Numbered from the stretch's first letter, positions 25,950 to 30,757 are shown. The stretch: DNA of 64,000 nt from a virus (IMGVR_UViG_3300023371_000089:1-64000), one strand, 5' to 3'. Notes: generated from the sequence alone by a model not told the origin. Translations and numbers: made by a program.

Positions 25950-26184
25950 CGTACATTAATCCAAACCTAACATCAGTAACATCCCCGGATATATAATCAA
26001 GAGCAAAATCCTTAAACCATTCAAAAGCCCTTTCCTCACCATATACAGCACCCTTGCAAAACTCATCCATCATTTCATTTTTGCTGAATTTTCTCATATC
26101 CAAACCAAGGCCCGTATTATAACTTTTAATTGATTTCAATGCAGCTTTAAACCTCTCAGGAGTTCTGTATTCTCGTTTATCCAT
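25918..26184 (-). CDS. Small hypothetical protein, 88 aa.
   Basis: Short ORF. Confidence 0.35.
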   Translation of the reverse strand: MDKREYRTPERFKAALKSIKSYNTGLGLDMRKFSKNEMMDEFCKGAVYGEERAFEWFKDFALDYISGDVTDVRFGLMYDDYKKAMGYE

Positions 26185-26939
26185 TACTCATCAAAATTTT
26201 CAAAATTCGTACCATATTGGAACGTGTCCCATTCTCTCCCAAAAACACTGAAAAGTCCATTGTCTTTAATCAGGAGTTCAATGATTTGACCCTCATCAGC
26301 CCAAACATCATAAGCCGAACACCAACCCATTTGGTCTTCAGTTGCACGATATGTCTGACTGAAAATTTCATAAAGACGCATTTCTTTATTCACTGATTTA
26401 GCGTAAGACAGGGCATCAGCAATACATTCACTATTCTGTGGCAACCCAACGTGAGGCCTCCATCCGAAATCATATTTATTTAGTTCCCTCATCAACGCCC
26501 AAAATGAAAAATCGTCACGCACATTCACTGTCATCTCATGACCATAAGCATTATTATAAGGGAAAACCCATTTTTCTATGAACCCCTCACAATATAAAGG
26601 ACTGATATCATTATTAGTACTATATAAATCGCCATATACAAGGTCCTTAGGAAGACTTACTATGAATGCGTCTCCCGGGGTCTTAACAGTTACAACCCAC
26701 CCATGAAAATTGTCTCGACAAATTACAGTAATACCATTATTAAGTCTAAACATATATACGGGAAGTAAGCAACTCTTGCTCATATGTGATGATACGACAA
26801 AACAAGGAGTTTTCAAGAGATTAGTACATATACTATCCCTAACAAAACATTCCTGTTTCTCTGCAGATTTCTTCCAAAGAAGGGTATCATCAAGGTCAAA
26901 ACTTCTCTGTCTGTTTAAAATCAATTCATTAATTCTCAT
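26184..26939 (-). CDS. Hypothetical protein, 251 aa.
   Basis: Long ORF. Confidence 0.45.
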   Translation of the reverse strand: MRINELILNRQRSFDLDDTLLWKKSAEKQECFVRDSICTNLLKTPCFVVSSHMSKSCLLPVYMFRLNNGITVICRDNFHGWVVTVKTPGDAFIVSLPKDLVYGDLYSTNNDISPLYCEGFIEKWVFPYNNAYGHEMTVNVRDDFSFWALMRELNKYDFGWRPHVGLPQNSECIADALSYAKSVNKEMRLYEIFSQTYRATEDQMGWCSAYDVWADEGQIIELLIKDNGLFSVFGREWDTFQYGTNFENFDE

Positions 26940-26993
26940 AAAGTTTTTATTTAAAAGTTTTCTTATCTTACTGCAAATACCGTGCCAAAGTAA

Positions 26994-27197
26994 TTAGTCC
27001 CCAAAAATATTTTCACCTTTGTCAAACTTTCTTTGCTTATCAGCAACATCTTCCCTAAAATCATCCCATTCGAATAATGTAGGAATATCCAAATTATCAG
27101 GAAACCAATCCATCCAAGAAAAAGGATTTCCATTAATTATCCACAATGGTCCTCCAAGAACAATTGTTGTAAAAAAGATAAAAATACCCAAAATCAT
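26994..27197 (-). CDS. Small membrane protein. Start taken at the internal ATG at 27197.
   Basis: MILGIFIFFTTIVLGGPLWII... followed by an acidic tail. It lies directly abutting the right end of the IS element. Confidence 0.4.
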   Translation of the reverse strand: MILGIFIFFTTIVLGGPLWIINGNPFSWMDWFPDNLDIPTLFEWDDFREDVADKQRKFDKGENIFGD

Positions 27198-27204
27198 GGT
27201 TATT

Positions 27205-27420
27205 CCATTGCAGTCAACTACACCCACCTAAAGGAGGGTGCTTGACACTGCCTCGTTAGAGGCATGTCGATTGGGAGGTTGACTGCTCCCTGCCTGTAAG
27301 GATAACCAATTGACCTTCAATTGGTAAAAAACTCGATACAGGGTGGTTGGACCTTTGTCCGATATTAATCGCAGCATTCCAATCTGAGTCAAAGACAACT
27401 CCGTCAACGCAGATATATCT
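27205..27420 (-). ncRNA. Putative omega-RNA/reRNA scaffold of TnpB. It overlaps the tnpB 3' end and the right-end hairpin. The guide would derive from flanking DNA around 27205-27220.
   Basis: The position matches characterised IS605 TnpB systems (3' end of tnpB plus the right end). Structured elements include ccaattg-acctt-caattgg (27306-27324) and the right-end hairpin. Confidence 0.3.
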
Positions 27421-28583
27421 GCGACCACGGCGCTCTCCATCACGATTATTGGTGCGACAATCCATCTGACTTGTATACATCGGAGAAACTGTTTCCACCT
27501 GCTTGCCCGCAAGTGGTGCCTTGTAAGTCAATATACGTTTAAATTCATAAAATGGAATCTGAGATAAAGCATTGTTATGCTTCGCTCTCTTGTACCCCTC
27601 ACTGGTACGTGAAGTTTTCTTTTTAATCTTTGTGAGGTCTTCCATCACAATGATGGAAGCATTTGTACTATTAATGAGTACTTTACTTGCACGATAACAC
27701 ATGTCCTTAGAGAGGTTGCGTTCCTTGTTGCGAACTTTCTTAAGGTGGCGCTTTGCTGATTTGGTACCTTTCTCTTGTAGTTTACGCTTAAGATAACGGA
27801 TGTCCCTACGCTTCTTAAGATATGTTGTATCTTTAAATGCCTTACCCTCTGAGGTAACAAATATCATTCTTGCACCGAGGTCAACACCTATGCACTCCTC
27901 AGAATGTAATGGTTTTTCAGGTACTTCGAAGGGTACTGAAAGGAAGAAATTCCCGTTTCTATAGAATATTGTAGGGTCATATGCCTTATAAGTACTAAGC
28001 ATTTCTTTTGCCTTAGGATAGACATTAAAAGGTACGAAAGTACGTTTGTTTTTCTGTGCCCCAGTAATGGTTATTCCTTCAGATGTAAGCACTCCGTAGA
28101 GGCGTTTATCGAGGGTCATTGTTAATGATTTTCTCTGTGGTACTTCAGCGTTCTTATGTTTGTTTGCTTTAATTGATTTCAAAGCAGACGCTGCTGCTTG
28201 TTCGCACTTGATTACCATCTGTGAAGATAAAGCAGGAAACTCTGTCCTAATTACGTTATAACACGCCTCGTGTACTTTTTTAAGTGACAGTGTTATTTTG
28301 TTATCATGTAGAATACGTGTACACCTATTGTACGCATCTCTTGCACATACAAGAAGATTGTACCAATGCGTTGCATTGGTATCATCCATTATTAGAGGTA
28401 TGTTATAGGTTTGTACAATCATAGCATTCACGTATGTGATTTCTATATATAAATATTATAATAAATTAAAAAGTTTTATTTTTTTTTAAAAGTTATATAT
28501 TTACATTAAGAAAATAATGTTTAACCAAAAAGGGTTTAATCGTAGTTCCTCTCCACCCTAAAGGATGGAGTTTCCCTACGATA
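27221..28583 (-). mobile_element. IS200/IS605-family insertion sequence of the tnpB-only (IS1341-like) type. There is no tnpA.
   Basis: A TnpB ORF flanked by subterminal hairpins with similar loops. The right end at 27221-27240 reads CACCC-acctaaagga-GGGTG. The left end at 28551-28570 reads CTCCA-ccctaaagga-TGGAG, nested inside atcgtag...ctacgat (28538-28583). No Y1 transposase ORF fits between the ends. Confidence 0.65.
27256..28431 (-). CDS. tnpB: TnpB (IS605 OrfB family, RuvC-like RNA-guided endonuclease).
   Basis: RuvC-I IGVDLGARMIF, RuvC-II SIIVMEDL, RuvC-III FDSDWNAAINIGQR. The Zn finger is incomplete (2 Cys). The N-terminal domain is typical of this family. Confidence 0.85.
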   Translation of the reverse strand: MNAMIVQTYNIPLIMDDTNATHWYNLLVCARDAYNRCTRILHDNKITLSLKKVHEACYNVIRTEFPALSSQMVIKCEQAAASALKSIKANKHKNAEVPQRKSLTMTLDKRLYGVLTSEGITITGAQKNKRTFVPFNVYPKAKEMLSTYKAYDPTIFYRNGNFFLSVPFEVPEKPLHSEECIGVDLGARMIFVTSEGKAFKDTTYLKKRRDIRYLKRKLQEKGTKSAKRHLKKVRNKERNLSKDMCYRASKVLINSTNASIIVMEDLTKIKKKTSRTSEGYKRAKHNNALSQIPFYEFKRILTYKAPLAGKQVETVSPMYTSQMDCRTNNRDGERRGRRYICVDGVVFDSDWNAAINIGQRSNHPVSSFLPIEGQLVILTGREQSTSQSTCL

Positions 28584-28743
28584 AATTTATATGAAAAAAT
28601 AAGGAATTAACCAAAGTCTCAAACCGATTAATTTCAAATGTGTTTTAGTACGTTCTGTCATAAAATCATAATTTAACATTCTCAGGGCAAATATACAAAA
28701 ACCATGCCAAACCTAAAAAAATTCTTTTTTTTGCTACTTATAT

Positions 28744-28778
28744 AAAAAACGGGACCTGTCGTGAGACACATCCCGTTT
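28744..28778 (-). terminator. Rho-independent terminator downstream of the flotillin gene. It is copy 2 of the identical 35-bp hairpin.
   Basis: aaaaaacgggacctgtcgtgagacacatcccgttt, identical to 13193-13228. The upstream context tacttaTaTa matches tacttaCaCa at the first copy. Confidence 0.65.
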
Positions 28779-28797
28779 ACTTCTATTATATCAACAT

Positions 28798-30357
28798 TTA
28801 GTCGTGAAGAATCTGTTTACCCGTTGCTTCAACCTCAACATGTCCACCCTTAAGCGAAACATTTCTATCGGTCTTAGCATTAATTGTGTGGGACTCAAGA
28901 ATCTTAGAAAGGTCCACGCCTGTCGCATTGGAAACCGTATCAAATGTCTGTTTGATGACCATTGGGACATTTGCTGATACGCCTGAGACACCATTATTAT
29001 CACCGCCACCATAAATGGTAACATTATCAATTGACTTGATTGGTTCAGCAACGTTCTTGGCCATGTCAGGAAGAATACCAACAAGCATTTCAACAATTGC
29101 AGCATCATTATACTTCTGATAAGCGTCGGCTTTCTTGTTCATTGCTTCAGCCTCAGCCTCACCCTTCTTAAGAATTGCATAAGCCTCAGCTTCACCCTTA
29201 GCCTTGATACCGAGAGCCTCCTGTTCCATCTTAAACTTAAGTGCCTCAGCCTCCGCTCTCATAGCCTTTGCCCTCTGCTCAGCCTCATATGTCTCTGCTT
29301 CAGCCTTTCTCTTGCGCTGTTCAAGTTCTGCTGCAGCCGCAACTTCCTTATGATACTTATCAGCATCAGCCTTCTTATTTACTTCCGCCTCAAGAGTCTT
29401 CTGCATGATGGCAATTTCCTGAGCCTTCAATTCCTGTGTCTTGGCAGCCTTTTCAACCTCCGCCTCAACCTGCTTTGCATTGATTTCCTTGCGTCTTTCA
29501 GCCTCAATAAGAGCCTCGGCAGCATGTGCCTCAACGGTCTTCACCTTAATGGTCTTTGCCTGTTCCTGCTTCTGAATTTCATATGCAGCATCAGCCTCAG
29601 CACGTTTGATGTCTTCCGAAATCTTAAGTTCTGACTTCTTGATTGCAAGCTCATTGTTTTTCTCAGCAATCTTCGTCTCCGACGCAACACGTGCATCATT
29701 TGATTCCTGAAGAGCCTGAGCCTCTGCTACCTTCACATCCTTTGTGGCCTGTGCCTTATTAATGGCAGCCTCCTTAGTAATCTTGCATGTATTATCAGCA
29801 CCGAGAGCCTCAATAAGCCCCTCACGGTCAGTTACTGACTGAATATTACATGAAAGAATTTCAATACCCAGGCGTTCCATATCAACAGCAGCCTTCTTCT
29901 GAATCTGATTAGAGAAACCATCACGGTCTGTGTTAAGGGCGCGTAAGTCGAGTGTTCCAACAATCTCACGCATATTACCCTGAAGAACATCCTTCACCTG
30001 ATGAGATATCATCTCAGGAGACATATTAAGAAAGTTCGCACTTGCAAGCCTAATCCCATCTTCAGTTGGCATAATTCTAACCTTTGCCACAGCATCCACA
30101 TCTACATTGATGAAGTCTGAGGTTGGGACAGGGGTTGTTGTCTTTACATCAACTGTAATCTGTCCGGTATAAACCTTATCAAGTTTCTGAAAGAACGGAA
30201 TCCTAAATCCACCTGAACCAATAAGAATTTTAGGCTTTTTAGTAAGTCCTGATATAATATAAGCAATCTGTGGCGATGTCTTAACATAAGACGCAAAAAT
30301 AAAAAGGACAAGGAATGCCACAATTCCAATGACCACATAAGTAAGTGTACTTGACAT
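28798..30357 (-). CDS. Flotillin-like SPFH/band-7 protein (FloT/YqiK-type).
   Basis: An N-terminal transmembrane segment, then an SPFH core (...ILIGSGGFRIPFFQKLDKVYTGQITVDV...), then a long Ala/Glu/Lys-rich coiled coil (EAEAE repeats). Confidence 0.8.
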   Translation of the reverse strand: MSSTLTYVVIGIVAFLVLFIFASYVKTSPQIAYIISGLTKKPKILIGSGGFRIPFFQKLDKVYTGQITVDVKTTTPVPTSDFINVDVDAVAKVRIMPTEDGIRLASANFLNMSPEMISHQVKDVLQGNMREIVGTLDLRALNTDRDGFSNQIQKKAAVDMERLGIEILSCNIQSVTDREGLIEALGADNTCKITKEAAINKAQATKDVKVAEAQALQESNDARVASETKIAEKNNELAIKKSELKISEDIKRAEADAAYEIQKQEQAKTIKVKTVEAHAAEALIEAERRKEINAKQVEAEVEKAAKTQELKAQEIAIMQKTLEAEVNKKADADKYHKEVAAAAELEQRKRKAEAETYEAEQRAKAMRAEAEALKFKMEQEALGIKAKGEAEAYAILKKGEAEAEAMNKKADAYQKYNDAAIVEMLVGILPDMAKNVAEPIKSIDNVTIYGGGDNNGVSGVSANVPMVIKQTFDTVSNATGVDLSKILESHTINAKTDRNVSLKGGHVEVEATGKQILHD

Positions 30358-30376
30358 ATATTTAAAAAATTAAAAA

Positions 30377-30757
30377 TTATTTCCTATTTTTCTTTTCATT
30401 CCTAAGTTCAACAACAGTCATAACTGCGTAATTAGCAAGGTCAAGAAGAGTATCTTCAACGGATTCGTCCTTTACCTGAATCTGTCCTTTCTCATAAATG
30501 TTTTCAAGACGTTCCATCTTATCCGACAGCCTTAACAAGGCTGTAAGAAAACCCCATTTCTTAAATCTCTTATGGAAATTATTTCCATAATCGGCATTCT
30601 TTTTAGCATGAACAACGTCCATTTCATGCAGAACATCATTAAAGTAATCAACATATTCATCAGAAGCAGTTTCTTCTACAGGCAATTCAACGTAATCACT
30701 TCCATAATCTTTTGCAAGATTATCACCACTAAGTGTAAAACAATCGTAATTCTCCAT
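30377..30757 (-). CDS. MazG-like nucleotide pyrophosphohydrolase. Start taken at the ATG at 30757 (MENYD...).
   Basis: ...FHKRFKKWGFLTALLRLSDKMERLE...DESVEDTLLDLANYAVM follows the MazG EExxD/ELgDxL pattern. The upstream portion of the longer ORF looks non-coding. Confidence 0.5.
   Translation of the reverse strand: MENYDCFTLSGDNLAKDYGSDYVELPVEETASDEYVDYFNDVLHEMDVVHAKKNADYGNNFHKRFKKWGFLTALLRLSDKMERLENIYEKGQIQVKDESVEDTLLDLANYAVMTVVELRNEKKNRK

Follow-up and report, generated by a model that had tools for sequence, protein, structure and literature searches.

A probable IS1341-type, tnpB-only insertion sequence with a predicted omega-RNA in the genome of a large phage

The sequence analysed in this work, referred to here as the window, is a stretch of viral DNA of 64,000 nucleotides (IMGVR_UViG_3300023371_000089:1-64000), and all positions are counted from its first letter. 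An ENA contig (165 kb) and a JGI contig match the window with 100% identity, and the contigs carrying its proteins reach 0.2-1 Mb. Its genes include those for a family-B DNA polymerase, a primase, SbcCD-like proteins, ClpP, a sigma factor and a GH108 lysin. The genome concerned is that of a large, probably jumbo, phage, which is present, for example, in the samples ERZ27248436 and JGI 3300018493 and whose host is probably a Prevotella or another member of the Bacteroidales. On its minus strand, downstream of a flotillin gene and the terminator-like hairpin of that gene, there is an element of 1378 bp (28590..27213), which contains a tnpB coding sequence of 388 aa (27256..28422, from an ATG) recognised by Pfam, by PDB alignments and by the alignment of homologues. 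When read from a GTG at 28431, this open reading frame (27256..28431) encodes 391 aa, the length that had been predicted originally; the ATG at 28422 is the likelier start and it is also the one called on the identical public contigs. The element ends 16 nt upstream of the ATG (27197) of an ORF for a small membrane protein of 67 aa (26994..27197, minus strand), which is located downstream of it. A match to OrzO-P at 28715-28775 (E = 7.6) was not accepted, as this region looks like the flotillin terminator.

The assignment of the encoded protein to the TnpB family is based on several kinds of comparisons. Its Pfam matches are to Cas12f1-like_TNB (3e-15) and to OrfB_IS605 (2e-5, just under the curated cut-off), and its sequence matches in the PDB include the TnpB proteins of ISDra2 and ISFba1 as well as Cas12f. 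The same three kinds of proteins are found by a Foldseek search (E values from 4e-18 to 6e-12) with an AlphaFold (AF2) model of the protein, for which the mean pLDDT is 85. In the alignments, the motif GVDLG corresponds to RuvC-I and MEDL to RuvC-II, and in the PDB alignments D347 is opposite D361 of ISDra2. The split RuvC domain with its D-E-D triad, a defining feature of TnpB, is thus present, and the original claim that RuvC-I, RuvC-II and RuvC-III are intact is borne out by the alignment, in which D181 (codon 27882..27880), E261 (27642..27640) and D347 (27384..27382, all on the minus strand) are invariant in 26 homologues showing 54-97% identity. However, the TNB domain has a degenerate CCCC (CxxC...CxxC) zinc finger, only C322 and C338 being retained in this protein and 1-3 of the cysteines in the members of its family, and because of this, nuclease activity cannot be assumed from the presence of the triad alone. 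The dN/dS ratio for tnpB is 0.23 in the comparison with a 97%-identical copy (dS 0.058) and 0.07 in comparisons with two 84%-identical copies, and these ratios indicate that the protein is under purifying selection.

The two ends of the element carry the hairpins that had been predicted, and when examined on the plus strand both of them, viz. CTCCA-CCCTAAAGGA-TGGAG at 28551-28570 and CACCC-ACCTAAAGGA-GGGTG at 27221-27240, read letter for letter as described, with a common loop. Viewed on the strand of tnpB, the left end forms a nested imperfect palindrome (28539..28582), which is evident from the sequence and from an alignment of 29 left ends, and in which an outer stem ATCGTAG/CTACGAT surrounds GGAAA, the inner hairpin CTCCA-TCCTTTAGGG-TGGAG (28570..28551) and AGGAA. 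Compensatory changes are seen in all nine predicted pairs of this left end (9/9), and 0 chance matches to its 30-nt motif are expected in the window. The right end consists of the subterminal hairpin CACCC-TCCTTTAGGT-GGGTG (27221..27240, minus strand), supported by the sequence and by the ends of related elements, and on the 3' side of this hairpin lies the terminal GTAGTTGAC, whose final base is 27213. Subterminal hairpins at both ends, in place of terminal inverted repeats, are characteristic of the IS200/IS605 family, and in the present case 29-44 relatives have kept both hairpins through compensatory changes.

The exact limits of the element are established by a related phage contig (L336), which was reached via a 95%-aa-identical homologue of a neighbouring 251-aa gene. 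In this contig, the sequence corresponding to positions 28776..28591 of the window is fused straight to that from 27212 onward, so that it represents an exact empty site. The junction in it consists of TTTTTTCAT (in a longer reading, CCTTATTTTTTCAT) followed directly by TGCAATGG, with nothing duplicated. As 28591 is joined to 27212 in the empty site, the element corresponds to 28590..27213; the span of 27205-28600 given by the original prediction does contain it, but these limits are more exact. The final bases of the left flank are TTCAT (28591..28595, minus strand), which the empty site identifies as the target or transposon-adjacent motif (TAM), and insertion directly 3' of TTCAT without any duplication of the target is a signature of IS200/IS605 elements. 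Further information on the boundaries comes from an unrelated contig (L001), where a copy of the element (97% identical in nucleotides and 98% in amino acids) is present in another context. The similarity of the two DNAs stops exactly after GGGTGTAGTTGAC, i.e. at window position 27213, whereas on the left it ends at about 28603, near TTCAT followed by ATAAAT, due to a chance similarity of T-rich flanks. Other searches for an empty site gave negative results: 18 viral loci found via flotillin homologues showed none, their neighbouring genes being unconserved and the phages too distant, and none was detected by exact DNA patterns in viral and JGI metagenome contigs, where the plain pattern of the right flank is also absent, so that these collections seem to lack this phage. 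Positions 26000-30500 likewise had no match in GenBank phage records by megablast.

The empty allele also bears upon what was present at this site before the insertion. The original prediction placed the element in an intergenic spot next to the flotillin gene and directly upstream of the membrane-protein gene, and while these neighbours are as described, the site may not lie wholly between genes, as in the L336 allele an ORF of 96 aa, whose start ATG corresponds to window position 28661 and which includes the small membrane-protein ORF, spans the insertion point. In the window this ORF is broken by the element after codon 23, and based on this comparison the small membrane-protein gene beside the element may be a disrupted gene.

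Related elements, about 45 in number, share the same ends and the TTCAY motif and all of them contain tnpB only, with none carrying TnpA. In their left ends the TAM is followed by a short A-rich stretch, the outer stem, GGAA(A/G), the inner hairpin (with the loop CTTTAG or CTTCAG), AGGAAT and the complement of the outer stem, and their right ends show CAAGC, a hairpin with the same loop and then GTAGTTGAC. The recurrence of this architecture, together with the compensatory changes in its stems, agrees with the earlier description of the ends as a hallmark of IS200/IS605 elements. TTCAY is found at 28 of the 32 tabulated junctions (18 TTCAT and 10 TTCAC), the four deviating junctions being TACAC (twice), ATCAT and CTCAC; there is also one uncertain case (L291), and copies in three further contigs (L329, L330 and L331) add three TTCAT junctions. 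The possibility that CAT or CAC of the TAM tends to coincide with the start codon of a gene on the opposite strand was considered, and it was not retained, as this holds for 10/32 junctions against a background of 23%, a difference that is not significant (p = 0.2).

Most of these relatives are on large viral contigs, up to 418 kb, and a few are in Bacteroidales/Prevotella assemblies, at least one of them within a phage region with a head protease beside the element. From the sample identifiers and the titles of neighbouring MAGs, we infer that the samples are mostly from rumen or gut. The clade appears to occur almost only in large rumen and gut phages of Bacteroidales, often with several copies in one genome and always without TnpA. 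The suggestion that active insertion sequences are rare in virulent phage genomes is overstated, since TnpB is frequent in phages (PMC12607003) and the relatives of this element are common on large viral contigs. Some contigs harbour two copies (L261 and L264; L281 and L287), and in L001 a second, different TnpB of 441 aa is located between the same kinds of ends. Close copies, with 73-98% amino acid identity, are found in four unrelated phage-like contexts, among them the copies in L329, L330 and L331 (73-84% amino acid identity). The same element is thus observed at different sites, as is expected of a mobile IS200/IS605 element, and because a 97%-identical copy is present in a different context, the comparison indicates that the element has moved recently.

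The left end of the element is separated from the start of tnpB by only 168 nt, and therefore, as originally stated, there is no room for a tnpA gene. Among the matches listed for the window (25 of 41 Pfam families; 68 ORFs of at least 80 aa) there is no Y1_Tnp, and in the approximately 45 relatives no gene is found between the left end and tnpB. A Y1 (HUH) TnpA, which is a criterion for the IS200/IS605 family, is lacking from the element, and its absence is expected for the non-autonomous tnpB-only subgroup. An IStron, in which a group I intron is fused to an IS605/IS607 element, was also considered and rejected, in view of the 168 nt available before tnpB and of a permissive Rfam scan that gave no intron match.

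The terminus at the right end is shared with elements of other kinds. The 16-base pattern of this end is unspecific, as many of its at least 117 matches in viral contigs are to unrelated sequences, e.g. marine phage structural genes, and the cases used here are only those that were checked with Pfam. One of these (L216) is an autonomous IS605 element with the same right-end terminus, which encodes both Y1_Tnp (8e-35) and TnpB. This type of right end belongs to a bona fide IS605 group. The same terminus is located beside IscB genes (RRXRR + HNH) in two others (L138 and L148) and beside an IsrB-like gene in another (L137). In the two loci with IscB genes, full matches to HEARO (117 and 93 bits) start exactly at the terminus. 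In the window itself, the permissive Rfam scan yielded a partial HEARO match on the plus strand (27213-27310; 19.7 bits, E = 0.33, compared with a gathering score of 83). This match should not be interpreted as a genuine IscB-type RNA, as it covers only the first part of the model, no iscB ORF accompanies it, and it is on the strand opposite to tnpB; the weak match occurs because this transposon right end is common to IscB/HEARO elements. The likeness to IscB/HEARO (Rfam RF02033) is one of the terminus, viz. GTCAAC-TA-hairpin with the loop CCUAAAGG. However, the orientation differs: the RNA of IscB elements starts at the terminus, has a 5' guide and is read inward, whereas the predicted RNA of the present element has a 3' guide and is read outward from the opposite strand. 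From these comparisons it appears that one transposon end serves both outward-reading TnpB RNAs and inward-reading IscB RNAs.

The predicted omega-RNA scaffold of 130 nt (27213..27342, minus strand) covers the right end together with the final 87 nt of tnpB, and it is supported by RNAalifold, by covariation and by the z-score of its fold. From an alignment of the 3'-terminal 170 nt of 44 elements, RNAalifold yielded four helices, which in the window correspond to a long-range helix (27342-27337 with 27298-27293), P1 (27290-27286 with 27277-27273), the P2 hairpin (~27266-27245), whose loop contains the tnpB stop codon, and P3 (27240-27221), which is the right-end hairpin; compensatory changes are present in 19 of their 24 pairs. 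To these helices a pseudoknot was added, formed by GUCAAC in the P1 loop (27283-27278) with the terminal GUUGAC (27218-27213), and a pseudoknot beside the guide is a reported feature of TnpB omega-RNAs (PMC10097598). For the resulting 30 pairs, 94.9% of the cells are paired, as against 73.5% in shuffles and 27-41% when the partners are slid, and both-side changes occur in 22/30 pairs; none of the observed measures was reached in any of 500 shuffles. Pairing in the pseudoknot helix reaches 98.9% and three of its pairs covary, the outer one changing from G-C to A-U or U-A (e.g. GUCAAU/AUUGAC and AUCAAC/GUUGAU). The single-sequence fold of the omega-RNA in the window has z = -6.97, and in the permissive scan no Rfam family on the tnpB strand matched it. 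A candidate P0 hairpin (27322..27302) is also seen inside the long-range helix; its register varies by subfamily and it overlaps a conserved coding motif, P-x-[DE]-G.

The RNA had been predicted at about 27205-27420 on the minus strand. The covariation of helices and pseudoknot in 44 relatives supports its presence at the tnpB 3' end, but its extent is narrower, with the scaffold at 27342..27213 followed by a guide at 27212..~27193. The predicted guide segment (approximately 27193..27212, minus strand; TGCAATGGAATAACCATGAT) would be transcribed from flanking phage DNA, and it extends into the first bases of the small membrane-protein ORF; its placement directly after the right-end boundary is that expected from the known mechanism of TnpB (PMC8612924). 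Between loci, the DNA right after the element boundary is unrelated, and within the window a second target of the guide was not found. TnpB systems are also recognised by a structured RNA that overlaps the 3' end of tnpB as well as the right end and takes its guide from the flank, and the predicted RNA described here is of this kind. With respect to the empty L336 allele, the right flank in the window shows a 1-nt deletion, and the guide, when compared with the corresponding sequence (TGCAATGGTAATAACCATGG), shows two differences, namely an indel of 1 nt at its position 9 and a substitution at its position 19. Because of these differences the present RNP may fail to cut the L336 allele. The mismatch could reflect either decay after the insertion or an allele that escapes cutting, and one contig cannot distinguish between the two.

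In the ISfinder classification, the IS1341 group of the IS200/IS605 family is made up of tnpB-only elements. By description, the element reported here is similar to this group in that tnpB alone is located between IS605-type ends and it is non-autonomous. Based on the different lines of evidence described above, it is very probably a non-autonomous tnpB-only (IS1341) insertion sequence of the IS200/IS605 family, which has entered a large phage genome directly 3' of a TTCAT and would work as an RNA-guided TnpB system. Among the closest known systems is the TnpB of ISDra2 and the IS605 group with its omega (re)RNA (Karvelis 2021, PMC8612924; structures 8bf8, 8exa and 8h1j, PMC10097598). The two are alike in their RuvC D-E-D residues, with D347 aligning with D361 of ISDra2, in the guide RNA, which in the present element is predicted to span the 3' end of tnpB as well as the right end and to have a pseudoknot beside the guide, in the correspondence of the 5' TAM at the left flank to the transposase target motif, and in having subterminal hairpins and no target duplication. 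However, the identity between the two proteins is low (about 15-18% in a structure-based alignment; phmmer E 1e-6), the TAM of the window element is TTCAY rather than the TTGAT of ISDra2, and, unlike ISDra2, the window element is without tnpA, has degenerate zinc-finger cysteines and is carried by a large phage.

If the established biology of TnpB is applied to this element, then its expression, the processing of its RNA, cleavage, homing and the source of TnpA can be envisaged as follows. Transcription through the right end would produce an omega-RNA ending, on its 3' side, in a guide (27212..~27193) of flanking phage sequence. TnpB together with this RNA would recognise TTCAT followed by the flank (TTCAT-TGCAATGGAATAACC), i.e. 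a genome that is without the element or has lost it. The RNP would then cut the element-free genome, and recombinational repair from an occupied copy would restore or spread the element. In a phage whose genome is present in numerous copies within a cell and which often co-infects, such cutting and repair would amount to homing (PMC13565253). Movement to new TTCAY sites would need a Y1 (HUH) TnpA in trans, since there is none in the element or among the Pfam families listed for the window. The function proposed for the element, as we infer it from TnpB biology, is to home into phage genomes or to be retained in them under RNA guidance, TnpA being supplied in trans. The concept of homing for TnpB has been described earlier (PMC10690162) and non-restorative homing into co-infecting phages has been reviewed (PMC13565253). 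There is a likeness here to the free-standing homing endonuclease genes of T4-like phages (Seg and Mob; PMC13565253), in that cutting of co-infecting element-free genomes followed by repair copying is predicted; unlike Seg and Mob, the target would be recognised by an RNA guide and the TAM and not by a protein, and transposon ends are present. A broader suggestion, that this TnpB clade is a phage-adapted lineage which spreads between co-infecting phages mainly by TnpA-independent RNA-guided homing, as a natural gene drive, is put forward only tentatively.

One of the other explanations of this locus is that the two hairpins are ordinary terminators or regulatory hairpins of the phage, and that tnpB stands on its own as a phage gene outside any discrete element. 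Hairpins are numerous in the AT-rich window, and a genuine terminator-like hairpin with a T-run is located nearby, after the flotillin gene (~28776..28743). However, neither of the end hairpins is followed by a T-tract, the terminator scan flagged neither of them, and both travel with tnpB into unrelated contexts, while the block between them is precisely missing from the empty allele. On the strength of the L001 copy and the L336 empty site, we consider this explanation to be refuted. It is also very improbable that TnpB has been domesticated by the phage, whether to act as a TldR-like repressor guided by RNA or to attack competitors or the host. The element has the same orientation as a phage operon and is located in its leader or 5' portion, huge phages carry compact type V-like effectors (PMC12607003) and repressors derived from TnpB are documented (PMC10705468), but, unlike the nuclease-dead repressors, the catalytic residues of the present protein are intact. 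Further, the element has both transposon ends in full and adjoins a TAM, its location differs in every relative, and the guide is the plain adjacent flank, with no second target in the window; neither a guide conserved across loci nor a conserved position in diverged phages is seen.

A third explanation is that the element is a fixed and inert relic, which has ceased to move or home in this phage despite the intact look of its gene and ends, and in which the loss of the zinc finger has inactivated the nuclease or TnpB has a role other than that of a nuclease. The lost cysteines are in keeping with it, as are the presence of the element in every contig with identical neighbouring proteins and the imperfect match of the guide to the sole known empty allele. 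However, the loss of cysteines is common to the whole clade, which is clearly still spreading, and dN/dS values of 0.07-0.23 across the whole of TnpB, an invariant D-E-D triad, and ends and a predicted omega-RNA structure maintained by compensatory changes across the clade all count against a relic. In view of this selection, and of the recent second copy at another site (97% identical; dS 0.058), an inert relic is possible but disfavoured, and we regard it as unlikely, although less so than domestication. The reading of the element as a non-autonomous insertion sequence with an RNA-guided TnpB system is thus preferred.

In terms of its significance, the family to which this element belongs, its mechanism and the idea of homing are all known, and the occurrence of TnpB in phages, including huge phages, has already been reported as frequent (PMC12607003, where Al-Shayeb 2022 is referenced for TnpB in huge phages). 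What is new is a well-characterised member with a pair of occupied and empty alleles. In annotations, insertion sequence is the appropriate label for this element. Further, the clade of the 388-aa TnpB, in which the TAM is TTCAY, the scaffold has 130 nt and a canonical zinc finger is lacking, may be of interest for the mining of small genome editors. That TnpB drives its own inheritance between co-infecting phages has been proposed in reviews, and a demonstration of it in phages was not found in the literature consulted. The occupied allele, the empty L336 allele, the exact TAM and predicted guide and the covarying omega-RNA together make such TnpB-driven inheritance directly testable. If the clade is indeed a phage-adapted lineage, then the occupied allele and the guide-mismatched empty allele would represent a snapshot of drive and escape.

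In the related phage contig L336, where the element is absent and its flanks are joined, a 96-aa ORF (MTERTKTHLKLIGLRLWLIPYFFIAMVITMVLGIF...) crosses the insertion point (L336:122-412, corresponding to window 28661-28591 plus 27212-26994), and in the window this ORF is broken by the element after codon 23, with a 67-aa ORF remaining whose ATG lies at 27197. Because the ORF of the empty allele is split in this manner, the insertion, which the original prediction placed in an intergenic spot, may have truncated a small membrane-protein gene. L336 is the sole empty-site allele found, and in the comparison based on it (window 27193-27212 vs L336:193-213) the predicted guide and the empty site differ at two points: guide position 9, where there is an indel of 1 nt (GGAATAACC vs GGTAATAACC), and position 19, where a base is substituted. 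Judged from these differences, the L336 allele could represent either an escape from TnpB cutting or a decay that followed the insertion. On the upstream side of the element, a hairpin resembling a terminator, T-run included (ACGGGA...TCCCGTTTTTT; window 28776-28743, minus strand), is found 3' of the flotillin gene, and it is followed by TTTG...TATATTTG (about 28710-28690, minus strand), which is similar to the Bacteroidota promoter motif, viz. TAnnTTTG; transcripts begun at this promoter-like sequence would enter the element in the sense direction.

The window element and its copy in contig L001 are 97% identical overall, yet the P2 hairpin of their omega-RNAs is swapped wholesale (27266-27245 vs L001:7159-7181), and the two stems differ but are both fully paired (GCCTC/GAGGC vs ACTTT/AAAGT). 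The same swap also alters the C-terminus of TnpB, which is 388 aa long in the window and 398 aa in the L001 copy. In the TNB zinc finger (window 27467-27407, about residues 319-339), most cysteines are gone throughout the TnpB clade, whose members retain 1-3 Cys where CxxC...CxxC is expected, and a strongly conserved basic stretch, RDGERRGRRY, takes its place.

Additional tnpB genes of other types are present in related phage contigs (L001:1127-2648, L329:8793-9167 and L337:1532-2764), and the 441-aa TnpB of L001 is flanked by left and right ends of the same kind; no tnpA was found near the TnpB elements of these contigs. The related phages each appear to hold several TnpB elements. The T5orf172/MUG113 domain is GIY-YIG-like and frequently associated with homing endonucleases; a protein with this domain is encoded by one of the 68 window ORFs in alignment set A3, and in L330, a contig with a related TnpB element, such a gene (L330:3505-3822) lies immediately upstream of that element.

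The right-end terminus of the element (window 27213-27310, plus strand), when reverse-complemented, is identical to the start of the full matches to HEARO, the IscB omega-RNA (L138:638-866; L148:3804-4049). As the two are the same sequence, a single type of transposon end is used by both the outward-reading TnpB RNAs and the inward-reading IscB RNAs.
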